A DNA stretch of 64,000 nt. Origin: an uncultured bacterium (GTDB lineage Bacteria > Patescibacteriota > Minisyncoccia > UBA6257 > 2-01-FULL-56-20). The stretch covers positions 208,748-272,747 of the forward strand of contig OY970175.1 in NCBI GenBank assembly GCA_963707865.1, given 5' to 3'. This document shows positions 2,839-57,895 of the stretch, piece after piece; the stretch's first letter is position 1, and the number at the start of each line of letters is the position of its first letter. The translations under genes were made by a program, and so were the position numbers. The notes under the pieces are model-generated. The model was not told where the DNA came from. It saw only the letters and a program-made list of their open reading frames with translations, and made no database searches.

Positions 2839-5800
2839 TTACTGTGAGCAGAGTTGATTCAGAACTGATCGGGTCGCGGAACCTACATAACCATTGCCGG
2901 AAGTGAGGCCGTTCGGTGTGAGAATCTCATCAGCAAAGATGTTCTGGAAGATGATGACCGCATTCTTCGTGGCATCACCGAAGTAGGTGCTCTCATTGCC
3001 CGGTGAGCCCGCGCCGCTCTTTGCCACTTGCGTGAGGTTGCTCATATTCAGGACCGTCTGCAGCGACTTCACGTCAGCATCGTTCGTGCCCTGGTGCAGG
3101 TTCTTGTTGAACTGGGCCGAGCAGGAAGCGTCTTTGAGCTGTTGCGTGACTAGTTTTTTCTCAAGCGCGATCAGTTGCTGCGTCAAGCTCTGGAGAAGCT
3201 GGAGGAGTGTCCCTGGATTCGTCGTTGAAGCACCCAAGACCTGGCCACCGCCATTGCCCGTTGTGATCGTCGGTGGGTAGTAGCCACCGCTGCCACCGCC
3301 ACCACCACCGGAAGTCACGATCATGCTATTGCTGCTGGAATTACCGGAGGGTGGCGTCACACTGCCAGTAGTCGTCACGGCCATTTCATCTCCCACGCTC
3401 TCCGGCGAGCCTTGCGAAACAGAGCGGAGATAGTAGGTGGTACCCGGCGTGAGACCGGAAGCCGTCACGCTGTGGTCGGTTGTCGTTGCAGTGTCTTCGC
3501 TGGTGGAGCTCGCGTAGCCGTAGTTCGGCGCGTCTCCGAGCGTCGCATGTGAGACCGTGTCGTAGATCACGCGGCTCGTCGCCGGGTGGTCGGTCGTCCA
3601 CGTAAGCGTGATGGATGTGTCAGCGGCGTTTGTAGAAGTTTCATTTGAGATTACGGGTGCAGGAGGTACGAATGTTTCCGTGATGGCGCAGCTCACCGAA
3701 CCGCCTGCTATGATGCCGCTCCCGTCGTTGCAGTTACCGCTCGTCCCTGCGGAGTAGTTCGCAAGCGACGGGGGATTCACATGGAATGGGGTGTTCGCGT
3801 CAATCGTGACCGCTGTGCCGGACGCATCACCCGCGAAGGTGGACGTCGGGCTCGGGTGGCCGGCGATCACCGTGACCATGAAGTCAGAGGAGGTCGCGCT
3901 GCCGCCCGCAGAGTTATCAACAACGAGCGAGACGTTCAGGGTGCTCGTCGGCGTTGGAGGCAGTTGTGTGTACGTTATGGTGCAGCTGTACGAACTGCTT
4001 GCAGCCACCGTGCCGCTACAATCTCCCAAGGCACCGACGGTGTAGTCGTCCACCGCCGCGCCTGCAACCAAGAACACATCACCGTCATTCAAGGTCACTG
4101 GTCCTGCATATGGAGCGGTCGTACTGTTGACTGTGACCGAAGCCCCTGCTCCGAGAGGAGTCTCCGGAACGGTCACTGTGAGGGTTGAGGTGGCAAAGGA
4201 TCCGCCGCCACCGCCACCGCCACCACCACCACCGCCACCTGACGTGCCTTGTGTGTACGTTATGGTGCAGCTGTACGAACTGCTTGCAGCCACCGTGCCG
4301 CTACAATCTCCCAAGGCACCGACGGTGTAACCGTCCACCGCCGCGCCTGCAACCAAGAACACATCACCGTCATTCAAGGTCACCGGTCCTGCATATGGAG
4401 CGGTCGTACTGTTGACTGTGACCGAAGCCCCTGCTCCGAGAGGAGTCTCCGGAACGGTCACTGTGAGGGTTGAGGTGACGATTGGGTTCTCGCTGGGTGA
4501 GATGTTCACCTCCGTGCCATCATTCGCATTTGTCTGAATAGGAACATTGTAATGACTGTCGGTCACCGAGACATCAGATCCATTCGCGATCTCGAACTGG
4601 AAGTTCTTGCCCGGAGAACCGGCCACATCTGCGAACACTTGAACACTATTAACTCCGGTGATTAACGTGGCGGGAGTTCCTGATGCATCAAAGAAAGCGG
4701 TGTTGTCTTGGGCCACTGAAGTGAGCGTCTGTCCCACCTGCGTGCCATCAACTATCAGTTTCACGTTCTGAAGATCGCCGCTACTTGCGGAGCCGACCAC
4801 GCTGAAGCGAATGCTGTTTAAGAGGACGGGGCTGTTATAGACGGAGAAGTCCCACGCGCCGACAAGGTCATTCGTAGTGTTCACATTCAATGTGTCCCCG
4901 ATGGCAGACGAGGCGATCGTCAACTCTGCAAGCGATGGGTTCTCGTATGCCGACGCGTGAACCGTCAAGATATAGCTTGAACTCGCTATATTGCTTTGCA
5001 CGTTGTTGCCATTCACCGAGACGCTGACCGTTGAGCTGCCAACGTCGCCTATTTGCGGAGTGCCGCTCACCGTTGCGGTGTCGCCGGCGGTCGTCGAGGT
5101 TGCCCATGCCGGCAAGCCCGTGATCTGCCAGGTCAAGGTATCTACTGGGTCGGTCGAGGTTGCAACGATGGTTGCACTGTACGGGGTATCTGCGGTCGCC
5201 GTGTCAGGCGTGAGACCCGAGACGATCGTGATCGTTGGCGCAGCGTTCACCGAGATTGAGAAGTCCTGAGTCGTCGGGGTACTTGCCGGGTTCGCGCCCG
5301 TTGCGACCAAGCTTACCGTCGAGGAGCCAAGATTGATTACTCCTGGCGTACCGGAGATGGTCGCCGTGTCGCCGTTCGCGACAAACGATGTGATCCATGC
5401 AGGCAGCGGCGTTGAAGTGCTCAGAGTCAGGGTATCCGCCGGATTGGTTGAGGTGGCGGTGATCGTCGTCGCGTAGAGGACGCCAACCGTCGCGTCAGGA
5501 AGCGGCGAAGTTGTGACAAACGAGATTGCCGGAGCGGTGCTCACTGTGATCGTATCGATCAGAGAACCGACACTCGCGGCGTTCGAGGTGCTCGTTGCGT
5601 TCACATTCAGAATAATCGGGTCGGTCGTGGTCGGGGTGCCTGTGACGGTGAGCGTTGTCTCTGTTGAAGTGCTCGTGAAGCCGTCAGGCAGACCGGTTAT
5701 ATCGAAGACGAAAGTGTCCGTCGCATTGCTGTCGCTTGCCGTGAAGGTTTGGCTAAACGGCACGCCTACTTGAGCCACGTCAGGCGATGAGGTCGCGATC

Positions 5801-9885: not shown

Positions 9886-11376
9886 ATGCCAAGAGCGGGA
9901 AAGATACAAATTATCAGATACGCGCCGCCGCCGCCCGAACTGCCAATTTACGGGCAGGTGGATCCGGCAGAGGTTTCTTTTATCGGCCGCACGAACTATG
10001 TGGCCCAGCTTGAAGAAAAAAAGTTTGTGTTCGGCATCAAGCGGCACGACCGGCGGCGCCACTTTTATATCGTCGGCAAAAGCGGCGTGGGGAAATCCAA
10101 GCTGCTTGAGCTCCTTATTCGCCAGGACATTGCATACGGCCACGGGATATGCCTTATGGATCCGCACGGCGATGTGATCGAGGCTGTCATGGATTTTGTT
10201 CCGGAGAATCGCGTGAACGACGTGGTGATCATAGACCCTACCGATATGGGCTACCCGGCTTCATTTAACCCGCTGCAGAACGTGGATCCCAGTTTTAAGC
10301 ACCAGCTTGCGCAAGGATTGATTGAAGTGATGGAGAAGCAATTCGGCGCGAACTGGACGCCGCGCCTGGAGCACGTGTTTCGCTTCACTGTACTCGCACT
10401 CCTTGATTATCCGCACGCCACGATGCGGGGGATGATCTCCATGCTTACGGACCGCAACTACCGGCAGAAGGTGGTGGAATATATAGAGGACGACATAGTC
10501 AAACGCTTCTGGGCAATCGAGTTCGCCGACTGGTCGGAAAAATTTGATACGGACGCGATTATCCCGCTTGTGAACAAACTCGGCCAGTTCCTCTCCGACC
10601 CGCTTTTGCGCAACATTTTCGGCCAGAAAGAGAACAGAATCAATCTTGAGGAATTGATGGAACAGAAAAAATTGATTTTTATTAATCTTTCCAAAGGACG
10701 CCTGGGCGAAGAAAATTCCAGTTTTTTGGGCGCGATGTTCATCACGAAAATCAAGCAGGCAGGCATGGCGCGCGCTTCCATACCCGAAAAGGACCGCCAC
10801 GATTTTTATCTTTATGTGGACGAGTTTCACAATCTTGTTACAGAAACGTTTGAGAACATTCTCTCCGAGGCGCGGAAATACGCGCTGTGTCTTACGATCA
10901 CGCATCAATACATGGGCCAGCTCTTGCCGCGCGTGCAAGCGGCGGTACTCGGGAATGTGGGGAGCATCATAATCTTCCGCGTCGGCGGCGAGGACGCGGT
11001 GCACCTGAAGCCAGAAATGGCGCCGATCTTTGACGTGAAAGACATGATCAACCTCGGTACGCAGGAATTCTTCATCAAAATGATGATTGACGGTGAAAGC
11101 TACGATCCCTTTTCCGCGGAGACGCTTAAGGTGCTGCCGCCGCCGCATCGCTCGTTCCGTAAGGAGATTCTGGAACAGTCCCGGAAGAAATATACCATCC
11201 CCGCCGACGCCGCGAAGAAGCTTATTCAAGAAGAGGAGGCCACCATTCTCCGCAGCGCCCAGGAAAAAGCTATTATTGAAGGCAAGGCGAGGGGCAGCGG
11301 GGCGGGCACGGCGGGCGCCGGCGGCGGAGCTAAAGAAGAAGCGGCCGTAGACAAGACCCCCGAGCCTTTGATATAA
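9886..11376 (+). CDS. TraD/VirD4/TrwB-like (type IV secretion coupling-protein family / HerA-FtsK superfamily) P-loop ATPase
   Basis: Walker A 'GKSGVGKS', 'MDPHGD', Walker B 'LYVDEFHNL', 'ITHQYMGQL'; low-complexity Gly/Ala C-terminal tail. Confidence 0.8.
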   Translation: MPRAGKIQIIRYAPPPPELPIYGQVDPAEVSFIGRTNYVAQLEEKKFVFGIKRHDRRRHFYIVGKSGVGKSKLLELLIRQDIAYGHGICLMDPHGDVIEAVMDFVPENRVNDVVIIDPTDMGYPASFNPLQNVDPSFKHQLAQGLIEVMEKQFGANWTPRLEHVFRFTVLALLDYPHATMRGMISMLTDRNYRQKVVEYIEDDIVKRFWAIEFADWSEKFDTDAIIPLVNKLGQFLSDPLLRNIFGQKENRINLEELMEQKKLIFINLSKGRLGEENSSFLGAMFITKIKQAGMARASIPEKDRHDFYLYVDEFHNLVTETFENILSEARKYALCLTITHQYMGQLLPRVQAAVLGNVGSIIIFRVGGEDAVHLKPEMAPIFDVKDMINLGTQEFFIKMMIDGESYDPFSAETLKVLPPPHRSFRKEILEQSRKKYTIPADAAKKLIQEEEATILRSAQEKAIIEGKARGSGAGTAGAGGGAKEEAAVDKTPEPLI

Positions 11377-11383
11377 TATAGGT

Positions 11384-11563
11384 ATGTTCGTGCACCCTGT
11401 CTTTTTTGTCATAGGCATTATTTTGGTTATTTATCTCATAGCGACTGATTTCCATGCGCATCGGCGCATCAAACATTTGGAAAAAACCGTGAGGAAGCTC
11501 GAGGGCATAAACGGGGTGGAACATTCAAAACCTCGCTGGGAGAAGAAGGAGGATCTCTCATAG
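11384..11563 (+). CDS. Possible small membrane protein (59 aa)
   Basis: ATG 11384 eight nt after ATPase stop; 'MFVHPVFFVIGIILVIYLIATDF' TM; not in ORF track (<60 aa). Confidence 0.3.
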   Translation: MFVHPVFFVIGIILVIYLIATDFHAHRRIKHLEKTVRKLEGINGVEHSKPRWEKKEDLS

Positions 11564-11613
11564 CCATAGCGCGCGCGACCAACACCCCGCATTAAAAAAT
11601 TATTAAAAACTGT

Positions 11614-11643
11614 TTGACAGTGCTGGCTGACCTGCACTATAAT
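11614..11643 (+). promoter_or_regulatory. Near-consensus sigma70-type promoter (TTGACA-18 nt-TATAAT) with A/T-rich UP-like element
   Basis: TTGACA 11614..11619, 18-nt spacer, TATAAT 11638..11643; upstream 'attaaaaaattattaaaaac'. Confidence 0.55.
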
Positions 11644-11651
11644 GAGAACGA

Positions 11652-12101
11652 TTATTGGGATTTCCCACCGATCCCCGCCTCGCAAGAGGCGGGGTGAATA
11701 TTTTTAAGGCCATAGGTGGTCGAGAGTGCGTCGGTGACTTTTGCGAACGATTCATCACTCAACGTTGTCAGCCTTTTTACAAGTCGCTTGCTATCAAAGG
11801 TTCTTATCTGGCTCAAAATTGCTGTATTAGTTTTGCCGCCCTGAGTTATCGGAAAATACCATCTGCCTTCTTTTGCCCGACTCGTGAGCGGGATGCCGAG
11901 AAATGAATTCGCGTTGAATTTTTTGAATATGATGACGGGGCGCGTGAACCGTTTGCCTTTGCCGTAAATCTCCACGCCGATGTTTATACCAATACTGCAC
12001 CACCAGATTTCGCCTTCCTTGAAAAGCGTTTTTGATGGCGCGCCGTGCAGTATTACTGCTGTTCGCCACCAGCCGATGAGTGTAAGAAAATATTGCAGCA
12101 T
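11652..12101 (-). CDS. PemK/MazF-family toxin-like endoribonuclease (orphan; no adjacent antitoxin ORF evident)
   Basis: Kid/PemK-like motifs 'GEIWW', 'GxExxGKxRFTRPVII', 'IPLTS', 'QIRTFDSKRL...L..L'; true start uncertain. Confidence 0.6.
   Translation of the reverse strand: MLQYFLTLIGWWRTAVILHGAPSKTLFKEGEIWWCSIGINIGVEIYGKGKRFTRPVIIFKKFNANSFLGIPLTSRAKEGRWYFPITQGGKTNTAILSQIRTFDSKRLVKRLTTLSDESFAKVTDALSTTYGLKNIHPASCEAGIGGKSQ
11673..11706 (+). terminator. Intrinsic terminator hairpin (9-bp GC stem, GCAA tetraloop) followed by T-rich tract, ~30 nt downstream of the promoter's predicted start
   Basis: CCCCGCCTC-gcaa-GAGGCGGGG then 'tgaatattttt'; U-tract only on plus strand. Confidence 0.55.
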
Positions 12102-12171
12102 ATCGCCACGTTACCACATCGCCCATTAAAATTTCATAAAATACAGGGCCTAAAAGAGGTATACTATTTAT

Positions 12172-13962
12172 ATGACAAGCGAGACCAAAATTTGCCAAAA
12201 TTGCAAGCAATCCTTCGCGATTGAGCCCGAGGATTTTGCGTTCTATGAGAAAATAAGAGTTCCGCCGCCGACATGGTGCCCGGAATGCCGGCTCGTGCGA
12301 AGACTGTTGTTTTTCAATGAGCGGACGATCTATAAACGCCCTTGCGCCCTTTGCGGGAAGGATTTTATGTCTCTTTTTCCCAAAGAGTCGCCATATACGG
12401 TGTATTGCGATGCTTGCTGGTGGTCTGACAAATGGGATCCGCTCTCTTACGGCAAGGAAGTGGATTTTTCGCGGCCGTTTCTTGAACAACTTCATGAACT
12501 CTTCCGGCAAGTGCCGCAAATCGGGCGGAACGTCATCACGTCCACGTTCGTAAACAGCGACTATTGCAACGCCGCGTCGTATCTCAAAAATTGCTATCTT
12601 ATTTTTAATTCCGACTACGACGAGGACTGTATGTTCAGCACCTATTTGGAACGGAGCAAGAGTTCGTTCGACCTTTATATGTGCGACCATTGCGAGCGGT
12701 GTTATGAGGGAAGCAACCTTTTGAAGGACTTCAATGTCCGGTGGTCGGACAACTGCAACGAATGCATAGACGTTTCTTTCTCCAAAAATTGCATTGGTTG
12801 TTCCCATTGTTTCGGCTGTGTGAACCTCCACCGCAAGCAGTATCACATCTGGAATCAGTCGTACTCAAAAGAGGAATATTTCAAAGAGACTGCGAAGTAC
12901 GATATTGGTTCGTTTCGTGCGGTGGAGGAGTTCAAGAAGCGGAGCCGCGAACTTTCCCTGCGCTATCCAAAAAAGTTTGCCGAAGGGTTCCATAATGAAA
13001 ACGTAAGCGGGGATTATGTGTATAACTCAAAAAATACGTTCTGGAGCGACGAAGTGGGCGATTGCCGCGATTGCAAATTCTGCCAGTTTCTTTTCCTTTT
13101 CCCGACGAGCGATGCCTACGATTACACCATGTGGGGCATCGCGGAGCGGATATATGAATGCATGGGGGCAGGCGGGGGCGCGCGAGACGTGAAGTTTTGC
13201 ACCAACACATGGACCGAGCATATGAATGTGGAATATTCCAGGGACGTGTTTCTCGCAAGCAGCGACCTCTTTGGTTGCATAGCACCCAAGAAGTACCGGT
13301 TTTGCATTTTGAACAAACAATATTCCGAGGGCGAGTACCGCGCGCTTCGCGGAAAAGTGATCGCCCACATGGACGCCATGCCGTATGTGGATAGAAAGGG
13401 ACGTGTCTATAAATACGGTGAATTCTTTCCGCCGGAATTGTCGCCGTTCGGCTACAACGAAACAATTGCCCAAGCGCACCGCCCCCTCACAAAAGACGAT
13501 ACAGAGAAAGCCGGATTTCTCTGGCACCATCTGGAAGCGACCACCTATCAGCCGACCGTGCGCGCGGAAGAGCTCCCTGACAATATCAAAGAAGTTGCCG
13601 ATTCGATTCTGACCGAAGTGATTGAGTGCGCGCATAAAGGAAATTGCATCGATCAATGTCCCGGCGCTTTCCGAATCACACCCCAAGAGCTTGCATTCTA
13701 CCGGCAATCGCTCATACCGCTGCCGCGCCTGTGCCACAATTGCCGCCATTACGCCCGCCTTTTTTATCACAATCCGATTCTGCGTTTGTTCAAAAGGAAA
13801 TGTCAGTGTGGCGGTAGCGACTCGGCAAATGGAGTTTATAAAAACGCAGCGACGCATTTCCACGGCACCGCGTCCTGCCCCAACGGGTTTGAAACCTCCT
13901 ATGCCCCCGATCGTTCTGAGATCGTGTATTGCGAGCAGTGCTACAACGCGGAGGTGGTGTAG
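12172..13962 (+). CDS. Cys-rich multi-zinc-ribbon repeat protein of unknown function (paralog 1)
   Basis: N-terminal 'CQNCK...PPPTWCPECR' and 'CALCGK...YCDACW' ribbons; many CxxC/NC repeats; C-terminal ribbon 'LCHNCR'. N-terminal ~80 aa and nucleotide sequence closely match ORF starting 62886. Confidence 0.8.
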   Translation: MTSETKICQNCKQSFAIEPEDFAFYEKIRVPPPTWCPECRLVRRLLFFNERTIYKRPCALCGKDFMSLFPKESPYTVYCDACWWSDKWDPLSYGKEVDFSRPFLEQLHELFRQVPQIGRNVITSTFVNSDYCNAASYLKNCYLIFNSDYDEDCMFSTYLERSKSSFDLYMCDHCERCYEGSNLLKDFNVRWSDNCNECIDVSFSKNCIGCSHCFGCVNLHRKQYHIWNQSYSKEEYFKETAKYDIGSFRAVEEFKKRSRELSLRYPKKFAEGFHNENVSGDYVYNSKNTFWSDEVGDCRDCKFCQFLFLFPTSDAYDYTMWGIAERIYECMGAGGGARDVKFCTNTWTEHMNVEYSRDVFLASSDLFGCIAPKKYRFCILNKQYSEGEYRALRGKVIAHMDAMPYVDRKGRVYKYGEFFPPELSPFGYNETIAQAHRPLTKDDTEKAGFLWHHLEATTYQPTVRAEELPDNIKEVADSILTEVIECAHKGNCIDQCPGAFRITPQELAFYRQSLIPLPRLCHNCRHYARLFYHNPILRLFKRKCQCGGSDSANGVYKNAATHFHGTASCPNGFETSYAPDRSEIVYCEQCYNAEVV

Positions 13963-13987: not shown

Positions 13988-14938
13988 TCATGTCCGTACA
14001 TTTGTCCCCTCGATAGATTGAAGATATTCGACCGGCGTCTTTCCGGCAAGGGCAAGGTGAGGACAGATGGTATTGTACCAGGCACAGTAAGCGGCCTGTT
14101 TTTGTTTTGCCTCGGCCACGGTGCGGAACGCCACCTTGTTCCAGAACCGTTCCCGGTCGTTGCGGTGGGAACGTTCCACCTTGCCGTTCTGCGCGGGATG
14201 CCCGGGAGCGATGAGATAGTGGACCATCTTCTGTTTTGCGCAGGCGAGGTCGAACGGATGCAACCGCGGCTTCATGGGGTCAGCTGATTTCGGATATCCT
14301 ATGTAGCGATTCGTAAAGATGGATCCGTTGTCGGTCTTCACCGCACGGATGCGGAACGGTGCGGCCGCAATGACCCTTTCGAGAAACAGGATCGCGGTTC
14401 TCGTGGATTGTTCCTGGGTTACCCACAGATGCCGCCACCGGGTGCAGCAGTCGATCGCGGTGAACTGGTAGAGCCAGTTGCCCTTGAATTTCCTCACGTA
14501 GACGACGTCGATCTCCACCATCTCGCCGGGGAACGTGGCCGTCGGTTTCCACTTTTCCTTGGGCGTGAGACGCTTCTTCGTACGCGAGAGGCCTTCACGC
14601 TTCAATACTTTTGCAATGCCGCGTGCCGAGAGCCGCATGCCTTCGCGGGCGAGGAGGTGTACGAGCACGTCCGGACCGAGATCGGTCTCCGTTCTCATAG
14701 TCCGGATCTTTTTCACGATATCTCGCGAAAACTGTTTTGGGTGTGCGTGCGGCCTGCGCGATCTGGGCACGAGGGCGCTCGCCCCGCCACTGCGATATGC
14801 CGCCACCCAACGCTTCAGCGTACGGTATGAAAATGGTGCGTGGGCAGCAATGGCCTTGATGCTCATCTCTTTTTCAAGATGCGGCCTGATCCACCGCATT
14901 CGTTCCTCCGCTGCGTCTTTGGCAAGTGTTTGTGGCAT
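13988..14938 (-). CDS. IS481-family DDE transposase
   Basis: 'FTAIDCCTRW', 'VKTDNGSIF', 'PGHPAQNGKVERSH' rve/IS481 motifs; start taken at 'MPQTLAKD' (ORF track extends to 15073). Confidence 0.85.
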   Translation of the reverse strand: MPQTLAKDAAEERMRWIRPHLEKEMSIKAIAAHAPFSYRTLKRWVAAYRSGGASALVPRSRRPHAHPKQFSRDIVKKIRTMRTETDLGPDVLVHLLAREGMRLSARGIAKVLKREGLSRTKKRLTPKEKWKPTATFPGEMVEIDVVYVRKFKGNWLYQFTAIDCCTRWRHLWVTQEQSTRTAILFLERVIAAAPFRIRAVKTDNGSIFTNRYIGYPKSADPMKPRLHPFDLACAKQKMVHYLIAPGHPAQNGKVERSHRNDRERFWNKVAFRTVAEAKQKQAAYCAWYNTICPHLALAGKTPVEYLQSIEGTNVRT

Positions 14939-14980
14939 ATTCCCCAGCTTACGCTTCGAGGGGCCATATGTATGTGCAGA
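13992..14980 (-). mobile_element. IS481-family insertion sequence (copy A)
   Basis: Imperfect terminal inverted repeats 'TGTCCGTACATTTGTCCCCTCGA' (13992..14014) and 'TCGAGGGGCCATATGTATGTGCAGA' (14956..14980), ~18/23 matching; single DDE transposase inside. Confidence 0.8.
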
Positions 14981-15033
14981 GTACCTTGTTGACTGGCGAA
15001 ATCGCAGGAATCGTGGTATAATAGGAACAGAAC

Positions 15034-17022
15034 ATGGAGGAAGTTCCGGATAAAAACGTAATATATTTCGCACGAACCGATTTTCGCAATCAAGATCGGC
15101 TTTTTGGTATTAAGCGGAGCGACCGGCGCCAGCATATGTATGTCATAGGAAAAACCGGTACCGGCAAAAGCGCGCTCCTCAACAATATGGCCGTGCAGGA
15201 TATCGCGAACGGCGAGGGGCTTTGCGTGGTGGACCCGCATGGTGAGCTCGTGGAGGGGCTTATGAAAAGGATCCCGGAGGAACGGATGAAGGATGTCATC
15301 TATTTCAATCCGGCAGATACGGATTTTCACATCGGCTTCAACGTGCTGGAGCTGCCCGACCCAAAGTACAAGCACCTTGTGGCATCGGGACTCATGGGAA
15401 TTTTCACAAAGATTTGGGCGGGCGTCTGGTCGCCGCGCATGGAATACATTTTGAATAATTGCGTGCTCGCGCTCTTGGATACTCCGGGTTCCACGCTCCT
15501 CGGCATCCCTCGGCTTCTGACCGACAAAGATTACCGGCAGAAGATCATCGCGAACATAAAAGACCCCGTCGTGAAGGCGTTTTGGATCCACGAATTTGAA
15601 GGGTGGCAGGACCGGTTCAGGAACGAGGCCATCGCGCCGATACAGAACAAGGTGGGCCAATTCCTTTCCACCGCGCTTATCCGCAACATCGTCGGCCAAT
15701 CAAAGAGTACTGTGGACATTTTTGACGTGATGAACGAGGGAAAAATCTTCCTTGTGAATGTTTCCAAGGGTCGCATCGGGGAGGACAATTCTGCGCTCCT
15801 GGGCGCGATGCTTATCACGAAGATCCAGCTTTCGGCAATGGAGCGCGTGCGCGTCCCCGAGGACGAACGTGTGGACTTTTATCTTTATGTGGACGAGTTC
15901 CAGAACTTCGCCACGGATTCCTTCGCGGGCATCCTTTCCGAAGCGCGGAAGTACCGCCTGGATCTTATTCTCGCGCACCAATATATCGGCCAGCTCATCA
16001 CCGACACTTCGACGAGGGTGCGCGACGCGATCTTTGGTAACGTGGGAACAATGGTCACGTTCCGGGTGGGTGCTACCGATGCGGAGTTCCTGGAGAACGA
16101 GTTCACGCCTGAGTTCGTGATAGAAGACATCGTAAATCTTCCGAATTATTCCATCTATCTGAAGCTTATGGTGGACGGCGTGACGGCGCGCCCATTTTCC
16201 GCGGCCACGCTCCCCCCGCTTCAGGTGAAAACTTCCGCGATGGTAGAATCCGAGATCATCAGGATGTCACAGAAGCGCTACGCCCGGCCGCGCGAGGTCG
16301 TAGAGGAAGAGATCAATCGCTGGAGCGGCGTGATGGGACCGCCTGCGGCTACCAGTGCGGAAAAGAAAGGCGGAGATACGACGAGGTACGAAGCCGTATG
16401 TTCTTCATGCGGCAAGATGACGACGTTGCCGTTCGAGCCGACGCCGGGCCGGCCGGTGTATTGCCGCGATTGTTTGAAGAAAATAGAAGCAGGCGAACTT
16501 CAACCGATACGGGTGCCGCGCGCGTCAGTCGTACGCACGAGACCGCAGAAAAAATACGCAGATGATTTGAGTTATCTCGGCATTGAGTTCCCGGAGCAGG
16601 GAGCGCCGGCCGAGCTGCAGCCGGCGACGAGAAGGGCGCCGGTACCGGTGCGTCCCATGGGTTCCATGGATGGAAGGGGAGGGGCAGGAGCACCAATTTC
16701 CGGTTACGGGCCAAAAGCGGCCATGCCAACCTCTGTACCGGCCGCTGCGCCAGCCGCGCCGCCATCCGCCGAGCCGGCGGGGCGGACGCTTTCGCTATCT
16801 GAATTGAAATCGGCGGATCGGAGACCGAAGCTGAAGAAATCGCAACAACACGAGGAGATCAACATTTCCGAACTTCGGGAGGCAATCAAGGCATCATTGA
16901 GCGCAGATATCGGTGCGGGCTCCGCGCAGGCCGCCGAGGCGGAAAAAAGCGTCAGCGCTGACACCGATAAACGGGATGGCGAAGAAGACGGCAGCGACGA
17001 GGAGCGTGTGCGCCGCATTTGA
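15034..17022 (+). CDS. TraD/VirD4-like P-loop ATPase paralog with C-terminal CxxC-x17-CxxC zinc ribbon and long low-complexity acidic/Ala-Pro tail
   Basis: Walker A 'GKTGTGKS', 'VDPHGE', Walker B 'LYVDEFQNF', 'AHQYIGQL'; 'CSSCGKMTTLPFEPTPGRPVYCRDC'. Confidence 0.8.
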   Translation: MEEVPDKNVIYFARTDFRNQDRLFGIKRSDRRQHMYVIGKTGTGKSALLNNMAVQDIANGEGLCVVDPHGELVEGLMKRIPEERMKDVIYFNPADTDFHIGFNVLELPDPKYKHLVASGLMGIFTKIWAGVWSPRMEYILNNCVLALLDTPGSTLLGIPRLLTDKDYRQKIIANIKDPVVKAFWIHEFEGWQDRFRNEAIAPIQNKVGQFLSTALIRNIVGQSKSTVDIFDVMNEGKIFLVNVSKGRIGEDNSALLGAMLITKIQLSAMERVRVPEDERVDFYLYVDEFQNFATDSFAGILSEARKYRLDLILAHQYIGQLITDTSTRVRDAIFGNVGTMVTFRVGATDAEFLENEFTPEFVIEDIVNLPNYSIYLKLMVDGVTARPFSAATLPPLQVKTSAMVESEIIRMSQKRYARPREVVEEEINRWSGVMGPPAATSAEKKGGDTTRYEAVCSSCGKMTTLPFEPTPGRPVYCRDCLKKIEAGELQPIRVPRASVVRTRPQKKYADDLSYLGIEFPEQGAPAELQPATRRAPVPVRPMGSMDGRGGAGAPISGYGPKAAMPTSVPAAAPAAPPSAEPAGRTLSLSELKSADRRPKLKKSQQHEEINISELREAIKASLSADIGAGSAQAAEAEKSVSADTDKRDGEEDGSDEERVRRI

Positions 17023-30319: not shown

Positions 30320-31117
30320 TTATCGGAACGCATTGATGGCGTCCTTTAATTGCTTAGTTTCCCGTGCGGGATCTTTTGCAAAGATGATACCGCGGGAGGA
30401 GTTCACGATCATGCCTTTCTTCTTGGTGTTCAAGCCCGCCCTTACCATCTTTTCAATATCGCCGCCCTGGGGGCCCACGCCGGGCACGAGGAAGGTCATA
30501 TCTCCCATTAGCTTTCGGAGTGCCGCCATCTCTTCCGGATATGTCGCGCCCACGACGAGCAGGCAATTCCCGCTTTCGTTCCATTCGTCCCGTACCTTTT
30601 CCGCGATGATTTGCCACAACGGTTTCCCACCGATTGTGAGGTCCTGCACCTCGCGCGCCCCGGGGTTGGAAGTGCGGCAAAGGATAATGCACCCTTTGTC
30701 TTTTCGCTTAAGAAATGGCGCGAGCGGTTCCTTTCCGAGATAAGGAGAGAGCGTAACGGCATCAAAGCCGAACCAGTCAAAGAGCTCCCTTGCATACTGT
30801 TCGTTCGTGTTTACGGTGTCTCCGCGCTTGGCGTCGCAAATGGTCACGATATCAGGATAGTTTTTTTGTATATATTCCATGGTGAGCTTCAGTTCGCTCA
30901 TTCCCTCCTCGCCGCGAGATTCGTAAAATGCGATGTTCGGTTTGTAGGCGGCAACGTCCTGATGGGTAAGGTCAATAATATATTTGTTGAACGCAAACTG
31001 CGGGAATTTTTCCTTGTGGAAGGAGGCAGGGATCTGCTCAAAATCGGAATCCAACCCGACGCAGACAAGCGATTGCGCCGCGTCCGCGCGAAGGTTGTAC
31101 TTTTGAACCATATTCAT
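30320..31117 (-). CDS. pyrF: Orotidine 5'-phosphate decarboxylase (long, type 2 form)
   Basis: 'ICDAKRGD' and overall ODCase fold length. Confidence 0.85.
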   Translation of the reverse strand: MNMVQKYNLRADAAQSLVCVGLDSDFEQIPASFHKEKFPQFAFNKYIIDLTHQDVAAYKPNIAFYESRGEEGMSELKLTMEYIQKNYPDIVTICDAKRGDTVNTNEQYARELFDWFGFDAVTLSPYLGKEPLAPFLKRKDKGCIILCRTSNPGAREVQDLTIGGKPLWQIIAEKVRDEWNESGNCLLVVGATYPEEMAALRKLMGDMTFLVPGVGPQGGDIEKMVRAGLNTKKKGMIVNSSRGIIFAKDPARETKQLKDAINAFR

Positions 31118-57301: not shown

Positions 57302-57619
57302 CTACCGAAGGAGATAAACAATCATGCCTCCGACAAAGACCACAAGGGTTGTGCAGACGTACCCACTGCTGAAACCCATAAACCATGTTTCCCCGTTGGT
57401 ATGATAGGTGAACCAACGACGCAGATGTGTGTCGTAGTCTCGCCCGGATTCGCTCATGACCGCGTTGGCGAAGCAGATGATAATTGTTAGAAGCACCAGG
57501 AAAACTTCGAGCATCTCGTACACCCGTTCACTGAGCCGATGGGCTAAAAGCAAGGCAACTGCGGCAAGGAGACCCGCCAAAATTCCCGAGAGAGTGGGGT
57601 GTTTCTGTATCCAAGTCAT
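57302..57619 (-). CDS. Hypothetical membrane protein (3 TM)
   Basis: Hydrophobic segments; located between tRNA-Tyr and IS481 copy. Confidence 0.45.
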   Translation of the reverse strand: MTWIQKHPTLSGILAGLLAAVALLLAHRLSERVYEMLEVFLVLLTIIICFANAVMSESGRDYDTHLRRWFTYHTNGETWFMGFSSGYVCTTLVVFVGGMIVYLLR

Positions 57620-57895
57620 GACATCCTCCTTATAGGATTAAAACGCCAAAGAGCTTTGAGGTCGTCGTCTCCAGCACGATTCCTCACCTGAAATTTCTAT
57701 CCGGCGATACAAGACTCAAGTGCTACTGAACCGCAAATTCTGTTTAGAATCCGGCCACTTGGTAGAACTTTACCCTGCGAATATTATAATCCATTGGATA
57801 TCATTTGTCAAGCATAAGAAAAACAGGCCTGTTTTGGGCTAAAAGCCAAAATTGTTCGAAAATCGTCCAGGCCCGTGCACAGTCAAATGTTTTAG

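Follow-up and report, generated by a model that had tools for sequence, protein, structure and literature searches.

A conserved, structured small RNA gene convergent with MazE-less mazF-like genes of Patescibacteria: a candidate toxin/RNA-antitoxin module

Here, we analysed a 64,000-nucleotide (nt) stretch of contig OY970175.1 (assembly GCA_963707865.1) from an uncultured bacterium of the Patescibacteriota, hereafter the window, and focused on a minus-strand gene for a MazF/PemK-family toxin and on a predicted small RNA (sRNA) gene that lies antisense to the 3′ end of the toxin gene. Comparison with homologous loci revealed that this RNA is conserved, structured, antisense and strictly linked to mazF-like genes, of which it is the only conserved partner. 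It is very probable that the RNA gene is genuine and has a functional link with the toxin, and we consider it probable that the RNA neutralises or represses the toxin. The reading towards which we lean, with modest confidence, is that the locus represents a toxin/RNA-antitoxin module, in which the RNA would act mainly by a type I-like antisense mechanism on the 3′ end of the toxin mRNA; action mainly through protein binding appears unlikely, although it accounts for some of the observations. An earlier reading of the same DNA, made from the sequence alone (the sequence-only reading), had put forward a short antisense RNA as the controlling element of an orphan MazF-like toxin, and the comparative evidence lends this idea support. 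Transcription of the RNA, neutralisation of the toxin and the manner in which it would be achieved are what we infer from these comparisons.

The predicted RNA gene is delimited by a promoter and a terminator-like hairpin. The promoter recognized in the sequence-only reading, with TTGACA (11614) and TATAAT (11638) hexamers separated by 18 nt and preceded by a UP-like element, holds up, with 12/12 positions matching the consensus. The 64-kb window holds two perfect TTGACA-N16-19-TATAAT sites, where shuffled sequences would yield 0.01, so that this promoter is not explained by chance, and in the alignment the UP-like element is kept as ATTAAAAAATCATTAAAAAC in ~13 of the closest loci. The hairpin at 11673..11706, with its 9-bp stem, GCAA loop and T-rich tail, is likewise present as described, except that the U run starts 5-6 nt past the stem and not directly behind it; the stem reads CCCCGCCTC-GCAA-GAGGCGGGG, with G-C at 8 of the 9 pairs, and is followed by TGAATATTTTT. 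Taken alone, the terminator pattern is not significant (12 terminator-like sites in 6 kb vs 7.5 expected), and the reverse strand has the same stems without a U run behind them. Instead of the 55-60 nt anticipated for the plus-strand transcript, we arrive at a predicted length of ~56 nt, within that range, and at a second, smaller hairpin near the 5′ end (hairpin 1). Folding of the 61-nt RNA that starts at 11650 yields both hairpins at −26 kcal/mol (z = −3.5), and only 1 of 200 shuffled sequences is as stable.

The searches for known RNAs were negative. A search of the whole window with Rfam 15 gave no match to the element that reached gathering score, and when both strands of 11400..12400 were searched at E ≤ 10, the only match was a chance one to bxd_1, away from the element; at the same threshold the RNA was unmatched in 7 other loci and in 4 plasmid loci, and ARAGORN detected no tRNA or tmRNA near the locus. 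Because nothing in Rfam matches it, the RNA appears to constitute a new RNA family.

The element is far from being confined to the window. By tblastn, relatives of the toxin are encoded in at least 343 species-level genomes, mostly of Patescibacteria, and 80 of the 343 loci were fetched; together with the window, they form a comparison set of 622 kb that was scanned on both strands. With 11600..11712 as the query, nhmmer gave matches at E ≤ 0.02 in ~20 loci and weaker ones in a further dozen, each of them antisense to the mazF-like gene and located at its 3′ end. From 5′ to 3′, the MAFFT alignment starts with the UP-like A/T block, a kept −35 hexamer, a variable spacer (16-18 nt), a kept −10 hexamer and ~8 variable nt, and continues with the block AUUwUUGGGAUUwCCCACCGmnCCCCGCC. 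Behind this block come a loop whose length varies, the 3′ half of the stem and the U run. A covariance model (R1), built from 20 sequences of the transcribed part with the promoter excluded, gave 73 matches in the window and the 80 loci, all antisense to a mazF-like gene at its 3′ end and none elsewhere; two seemingly misplaced matches, in L032 and L063, turned out to lie at the 3′ ends of second mazF paralogues. There is a single match in the window (11644..11709; 79.7 bits, E = 5e-17), and ~70 of the 80 homologous loci carry one, with a promoter, a small hairpin and a terminator visible by eye in most of the others. Upstream of ~70 of the 73 matches lies a sigma-70-type promoter, the end of its −10 hexamer within 1-2 nt of model position 1, and in 62 of the 73 the promoter scores 10-12 of 12. 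Thus, the relatives do conserve a promoter and a terminator on the strand opposite the toxin gene, a feature on which the sequence-only reading had made its proposal depend. On this comparative footing, the element appears to be a conserved gene rather than a chance motif, and its pairing with mazF-like genes appears to recur in ~100 related loci, mostly of small uncultured Patescibacteria.

Two variants of the arrangement deserve mention in their own right. Behind one mazF-like gene each, L015 (1817-1885 and 1917-1981) and L065 (4364-4426 and 4484-4550) carry tandem sRNA copies, every copy with its own promoter. In L042, a metagenome-assembled genome (MAG) of Sulfurovum, a convergent promoter, TTGACT..TATAAT, is found downstream of the mazF-like match (4001-4306), but the RNA is a different one, with two direct repeats of AATGACAACTTCATT ahead of the terminator, an organization that recalls the repeat-type (type III) RNA antitoxins.

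Both hairpins covary in homologous loci. In the MAFFT alignment of 20 sequences, 91% of the cells at paired positions can pair and double changes are found at 9 of the 13 pairs, a result matched by none of 500 shuffles, with 50-60% of cells paired in controls in which the structure was slid along the alignment. The alignment of 73 sequences was fitted to the model and leans its way; here, 92% of cells are paired (41-59% in the slid controls), with double changes at 12 of the 13 pairs and in 165 cells, including all 9 pairs of the terminator stem. RNAalifold arrives independently at the same two hairpins. Within the RNA, conservation is highest in hairpin 1 (consensus UUUGGGRUUACCCAC), which is separated from the terminator by a linker of 3-5 nt and occurs as UGGG/CCCA, CGGG/CCCG and UGGC/GCCA; its outer pair in the 73 sequences is U-A in 45, C-G in 17 and U-G in 2. 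Across the structure, G·U or U·G pairs outnumber A·C or C·A combinations by 44 to 12, and in hairpin 1 by 7 to 1. This excess indicates that it is the strand antisense to mazF that is under selection, and that it is selected as RNA and not as a DNA palindrome.

The extent to which the RNA gene and the toxin gene overlap differs among loci. The complementarity of the RNA to the last ~18 codons of the toxin gene, as described in the sequence-only reading, is real in the window but does not stand as the general design, given that the overlap in relatives is much shorter. In most loci, the R1 match and the open reading frame (ORF) share 4-12 nt, including some flank past the U run, with the mazF stop codon in the region of the U tail, and a conserved CUA or UCA behind the RNA stem is the complement of that stop codon. 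In ~15 loci, including the window, this stop is lost and the ORF reads through the RNA gene (42-61 nt) to end near the 5′ end of the RNA. Because the alignment with canonical MazF stops at residue 132, which is where most homologues end, and residues 135-149 of the toxin are predicted to be disordered (predicted local distance difference test score, pLDDT, <50), the 18-codon overlap is a derived read-through extension, not the ancestral design. Consistently, some of the homologues in the protein alignment have a tail, HPAS..(variable)..AGIGG(KSQ), after the MazF core, whereas others stop ~17 residues earlier; this tail is what results when the strand antisense to the hairpin and its flanks is translated, with the variable part corresponding to the loop, which suggests that the conserved entity is the nucleic acid and not the peptide. 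In neither overlap class does the toxin strand show a terminator of its own or leave room for one, and therefore the toxin mRNA should carry the full complement of the RNA.

The toxin itself is a member of a well-known family. It matches Pfam PF02452 (PemK_toxin) over residues 28-127 with a score of 51 bits (cut-off 23.1; E = 1.9e-13), and solved MazF structures match it by sequence at E = 2e-5. Among 28 homologues, R54-P55 are invariant and L72-T73 nearly so. In B. subtilis MazF, the residues aligned with R54 and T73 are R25 and T48, the catalytic residues of that enzyme; the toxin thus appears to keep the catalytic Arg (RP motif) and Thr (T-T/S-Q motif). The alignment and the predicted structure show an additional, family-specific N-terminal helix of ~27 residues. 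The AlphaFold model, based on 28 sequences, is of low confidence (mean pLDDT 59), and with this query the top Foldseek matches, all MazF or CcdB, are weak (E ~1e-3, template modelling scores of 0.3-0.5). NCBIfam and PADLOC have no family for the toxin, a look-up in the contig index gave no entry identical to the protein, and all homologues in the alignment come from Patescibacteria-like MAGs.

Upstream of the toxin gene lies a putative extended −10 promoter. A TAnnnT hexamer, often in the form TGnTAnnnT, is located 4-9 nt (mode 6) before the start codon in 49/71 loci, compared with 25/71 for a control window, and a Shine-Dalgarno-like motif precedes the start of the mazF-like gene in only 12/71. 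Across the family, the toxin mRNA is thus probably leaderless. Just upstream of the toxin −10 box (~12125..12131) we also observed the heptamer TTTTAAT, which the UP-like element ahead of the sRNA promoter contains twice more, as ATTAAAA copies with a spacing of 11 nt. All three copies are kept in the closest relatives (L001-L012, L017 and L020) and could be either plain A/T promoter elements or sites of some DNA-binding regulator.

The sequence-only reading found no MazE-like ORF upstream of the toxin, and the interval up to the divergent gene at 12172 indeed contains none. When flanking ORFs of at least 60 aa from the 81 loci (the window included) were clustered, no family was present in more than 8 loci and no common protein antitoxin was found, so that there is no MazE and the RNA gene is the only conserved partner. 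The linkage is also evident from the opposite direction. A metagenome scan seeded by the RNA pattern only returned 30 stretches, of which 4 were chance pattern matches without a model match and 26 were real RNA genes. An intact, adjacent and convergent mazF-like gene accompanies 22 of the 26; 1 is at a contig end, and 3, representing 2 distinct sequences, are next to a 3′ remnant of mazF, with intact sRNA genes beside the toxin stumps (L086, 3149-3212; L091, 6960-7024, the same sequence as in L100). Similarly, the RNA and its promoter are kept in L005, where TGG has become TGA at the nearly invariant Trp81 of the toxin, and in L020, where the toxin is frameshifted. Decay of the toxin first, with retention of the RNA, is the usual decay route of toxin-antitoxin pairs. 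In the 80 loci, the window and the RNA-seeded scan, the RNA was seen only beside a mazF-like gene or its remnant; viral contigs contained no copy of the RNA pattern.

Searching plasmids with tblastn, we found MazF-like genes of Campylobacterota. The one on plasmid pVir of C. jejuni 81-176 (pVir0047; 30634..31038, plus strand) encodes a protein 39% identical to the toxin over the MazF core, with the same N-terminal extension and with no protein antitoxin annotated beside it. Between pVir0047 and pVir0048, in the orientation '><>', an sRNA of 77 nt, CJpv3, is transcribed from the minus strand (31119->31043) and has been detected by Northern blotting (Dugar et al. 2013, PMC3656092 Table S12). A TTGATT-17-TATAAT promoter ends 7 nt before the 5′ end of CJpv3, and a hairpin, CCCCGTC..GAGCGGGG, lies 6 nt past the toxin stop. 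On pVir, a homologous toxin is thus paired with a convergent sRNA that has its own promoter and a terminator hairpin abutting the toxin stop, the layout of the Patescibacteria module. The same layout, with an extended −10 promoter, 2-3 hairpins and a terminator abutting the stop, was found for the homologues on Helicobacter suis and Nitratiruptor plasmids. By contrast, the RNAs of Campylobacterota have no sequence in common with that of Patescibacteria and differ in length and number of hairpins: CJpv3 has three hairpins and no similarity to hairpin 1, R1 scores in the pVir locus stay within the noise (at most 11.8 bits), and the module is plasmid-borne, in a Campylobacterota host, with a promoter of the extended −10 type. 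The Campylobacter module is probably homologous to that of Patescibacteria. For a more distant homologue on a Brevibacillus plasmid (28% identity), we found neither an Rfam motif nor a clear convergent RNA. According to a statement in PMC10470494 that cites Shen et al. 2016, strain 81-176 has a type I system whose antitoxin is an antisense sRNA, CjrA.

We propose that the locus is a compact two-gene module of ~530 bp (11591..12116). On the minus strand, a weak extended −10 promoter would give rise to a leaderless mRNA for the MazF/PemK endoribonuclease; on the plus strand, the strong near-consensus promoter with its UP-like element would produce the ~56-nt RNA, which would consist of a short 5′ tail, the conserved 4-bp hairpin, the 3-5-nt linker and the intrinsic terminator. 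The toxin mRNA would run through the RNA gene, its complementary part being the last 18 codons in the window and the 3′ untranslated region (UTR) in most relatives. The sRNA, if abundant, would pair with the 3′ region of the toxin mRNA and lower toxin expression, either through duplex-dependent cleavage or decay of the mRNA or through interference between the convergent transcription units, in parallel with the convergent type I systems of Gram-positive bacteria and with CjrA of Campylobacter. We favour such a type I-like action because the RNA promoter is strong, the toxin promoter is weaker, complementarity at the 3′ end is guaranteed, and there is a precedent in Campylobacter.

Several observations weigh against this scenario. 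First, no other sequence of the module is as conserved as hairpin 1, even in loci in which this hairpin falls outside the coding region, which a pure cis-antisense role does not explain; given this conservation without coding constraint, direct recognition by a protein, most simply the toxin, comes into play. Second, the 5′ end of the toxin mRNA is not complementary to the sRNA (−9.60 kcal/mol for cognate pairs vs −9.61 for shuffled sequences, and no better than non-cognate pairs), and this, together with a leaderless mRNA that has no ribosome-binding site, would restrict repression to the 3′ end. Third, the 5-6 nt between the terminator stem and the U run may weaken termination. Fourth, the precedent in Campylobacter involves a guess, namely, that CjpT is the MazF-like protein of pVir and that CjrA/CjpT is the same pair as CJpv3/pVir0047. 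Finally, at the mazEF locus of E. coli, the antisense RNA aMEF stimulates expression (PMC8749433), so that the sign of regulation is not set by geometry alone.

The alternative that best survives, although we regard it as unlikely, is a type III-like mechanism, in which the sRNA would bind the MazF-like protein, a true MazF/PemK ribonuclease (RNase), and block it as a pseudo-substrate or decoy in the groove of the active site, perhaps aided by the N-terminal helix, with hairpin 1 and the linker as the recognition element. The antisense position would then merely reflect compact gene linkage; mixed type I/III action is also possible. Such direct binding would account for the preservation of hairpin 1, in sequence and shape, across proteins that are 40-60% identical and mostly beyond the stop codon, where there is no coding constraint; cis-antisense pairing requires no sequence conservation. 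It would also fit with paralogous modules of one genome that share hairpin 1 and differ in the terminator (L008/L009; the two copies in L032), and with the two tandem RNA copies in L015 and L065. Furthermore, ToxN, a type III toxin, has a Kid/MazF-like fold. The known type III systems (ToxIN, CptIN and TenpIN) resemble the locus in combining an RNA antitoxin, here putative, with an endoribonuclease toxin and in having a conserved RNA structure that could bind the protein. Their antitoxins, however, consist of tandem 34-36-nt repeats upstream of the toxin gene on the same strand, with a terminator in between, and are processed by the toxin. Here, the RNA is single and unrepeated, on the opposite strand and downstream, with two copies in L015 and L065 only, and the toxin matches Pfam PemK_toxin. 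Moreover, Campylobacterota keep the convergent layout with an entirely different RNA, which favours the geometry over a specific code between RNA and protein, although co-evolution of RNA and protein could explain this as well.

It is improbable that the RNA is a linked regulator other than an antitoxin, one that tunes or stimulates the toxin, stabilises the 3′ end of its mRNA, or acts in trans and simply travels with mazF. The stimulation of mazEF by aMEF in E. coli (PMC8749433) provides an example of an antisense RNA with a stimulating effect, and the conserved single-stranded and hairpin sequences could seed pairing with targets in trans. However, every RNA gene seen lies beside a mazF-like gene or what is left of one, an RNase with an intact active site and no other conserved partner needs a neutraliser, and toxin pseudogenes keep the RNA gene.

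That there is no RNA gene at all, the hairpin being the terminator of an operon that ends at 11563 or a bidirectional one serving mazF, the promoter being fortuitous or belonging to the gene at 12172, and hairpin 1 being a DNA operator, is very improbable. In favour of this reading, the terminator lies 110 nt past the end of the plus-strand ORF 11384..11563, whose transcript it could also stop, and palindromic operators can mimic covariation. However, the cassette formed by the promoter, hairpin 1 and the terminator accompanies mazF-like genes in unrelated contexts, the minus strand has no U run after the hairpin, G·U pairs exceed A·C combinations overall and in hairpin 1, and, apart from the window, just 3 of the 80 homologous loci have a member of the 12172 gene family beside the module. 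The last observation also speaks against a leader or attenuator for transcription towards 12172, which the sequence-only reading had entertained, as the RNA follows mazF everywhere. The hairpin was separately considered as the terminator of mazF itself and rejected, given the minus strand without a U run and the conservation of the cassette together with its promoter.

Returning to the type I-like reading, there is a likeness with the convergent type I systems txpA/RatA and bsrG/SR4 of B. subtilis and fst/RNAII of the par locus of E. faecalis, in which the toxin and RNA genes face each other, the 3′ end of the toxin mRNA can pair with the RNA, a strong promoter drives the RNA and a weaker one the toxin, and repression involves duplex formation and RNase III or mRNA decay. 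As in type I systems, the window contains what appears to be an sRNA gene with its own promoter and terminator, judged by sequence and comparison, and the complementarity to the toxin mRNA lies inside the ORF (11652..11705); in relatives, it presumably falls in the 3′ UTR, if the mRNA reads through. The differences are nonetheless substantial: the toxins of these systems are small hydrophobic membrane peptides, whereas the mazF-like genes encode RNases of ~130-150 aa; their RNAs are 100-220 nt long, compared with ~56 nt here; and the apparently leaderless mRNA offers no ribosome-binding site to remodel. With the type II systems MazEF, PemIK and Kis-Kid, the module shares a toxin of PF02452 with the catalytic Arg and Thr kept, but it has no MazE or PemI gene, carries the extra ~27-residue N-terminal helix, and the mRNA is monocistronic and apparently leaderless. 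An adjacent, co-oriented protein antitoxin of the AbrB or ribbon-helix-helix type, the hallmark of type II, is present neither in the window nor as a shared neighbour in the 81 loci.

Two further systems invite comparison. The pemK RNA motif of Weinberg et al. 2017 is reported to lie beside pemK genes in Bacillota and would resemble the element in being a structured RNA next to PemK-family genes without an obvious antitoxin; Rfam, which includes this motif, gave no match to the element. In the SymE/SymR pair of E. coli, SymE has an AbrB/MazE fold and SymR overlaps the 5′ end and the ribosome-binding site of the toxin mRNA, not its 3′ end. SymE/SymR is a type I system in which a soluble, RNA-cleaving toxin is repressed by a cis-encoded small RNA (PMC1891008), but SymE is related to the antitoxin MazE, not to MazF. 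Full-text literature searches turned up no report of a convergent RNA beside a MazF-family toxin gene in Patescibacteria. The coordinates of the features in the window are given in Table 1.

Table 1. Features of the candidate module, in window coordinates
Feature	Position	Strand	Description
UP-like A/T-rich element ATTAAAAAATTATTAAAAA	11591..11609	+	Two ATTAAAA(A) copies, spacing 11 nt; read from the sequence
sRNA promoter	11614..11643	+	−35 TTGACA 11614..11619, 18-nt spacer, −10 TATAAT 11638..11643; 12/12 match
Predicted small RNA, ~56 nt	11650..11705	+	Putative start 7-8 nt past the −10 hexamer, putative end at the U run
Hairpin 1 (5′ hairpin, 4 bp)	11656..11667	+	UGGG / AUUU loop / CCCA; U11656-A11667 to G11659-C11664
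Intrinsic terminator	11673..11705	+	9-bp stem and GCAA loop (11673..11694), U run 11701..11705
C-terminal read-through extension KNIHPASCEAGIGGKSQ + stop	11652..11705	-	Translated from the strand antisense to the sRNA gene
MazF/PemK-family toxin gene, 149 aa	11652..12101	-	MazF domain, residues 28-127 (nt 11721..12020)
Putative extended −10 toxin promoter TGgTAACGT	12108..12116	-	6 nt before the ATG at 12101; predicted

The module lies between a gene for a TraD/VirD4-like coupling ATPase (9886..11376, with further genes upstream from 7693) and an IS481-type transposase gene (13988..15073, minus strand), and the region around it may be mobile. A near-perfect promoter with a TG element, TAGACA-18-TATAAT (11348..11377, plus strand), overlaps the stop codon of the gene for the protein resembling type IV secretion system coupling proteins and stops 6 nt short of the ATG of a hydrophobic ORF of 59 aa (11384..11563), the same leaderless geometry as is proposed for mazF. 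The transcript of this ORF would run into the sRNA terminator stem at 11673..11694, and the terminator may thus also stop plus-strand transcripts coming from it. On the other side, the gene at 12172..13962 (plus strand) encodes a 596-aa cysteine-rich protein with many CxxC pairs and without a Pfam or NCBIfam match; members of its family adjoin the module in the window, L001, L002 and L025, with paralogues on both sides in L002. The only other perfect promoter of the window (TTGACA-N17-TATAAT; 57783..57811, minus strand) is followed by a leader of ~155 nt, up to ~57620, which precedes an ORF for a 105-aa membrane protein (57619..57302) and then a terminator-like hairpin by a tRNA-Tyr gene. This long leader has no Rfam match and could be a riboswitch or a small RNA.

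The components of the module, a MazF toxin and a convergent RNA antitoxin, are of known kinds. What appears to be new, judging from the literature searched and from Rfam, is a covarying RNA family and its near-universal pairing with a MazE-less MazF subfamily across Patescibacteria, as well as, against the same literature, the putatively leaderless toxin mRNA and the apparent read-through of the toxin ORF into the RNA gene. Given that the module is tiny (~530 bp) and self-contained, the choice between antisense and protein-binding action is directly addressable.

MazF and PemK are textbook type II toxins that are neutralised by proteins (MazE and PemI), and here a whole subfamily lacks the protein partner. 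If protein binding proves to be true, this would be the first RNA antitoxin to target the protein product of a canonical type II toxin family, and it would connect MazF with ToxN in mechanism. It would be a single-copy, convergent 'type III-like' or hybrid type I/III antitoxin that is widespread in the reduced genomes of Patescibacteria. If the RNA is an antitoxin by whichever route, the boundaries between types I, II and III would follow the partner and not the fold of the toxin, and 'orphan' MazF genes in MAGs should not be taken for solitary toxins. Patescibacteria would then also gain one of their first well-supported regulatory small RNAs, considering that no Rfam family matches it.

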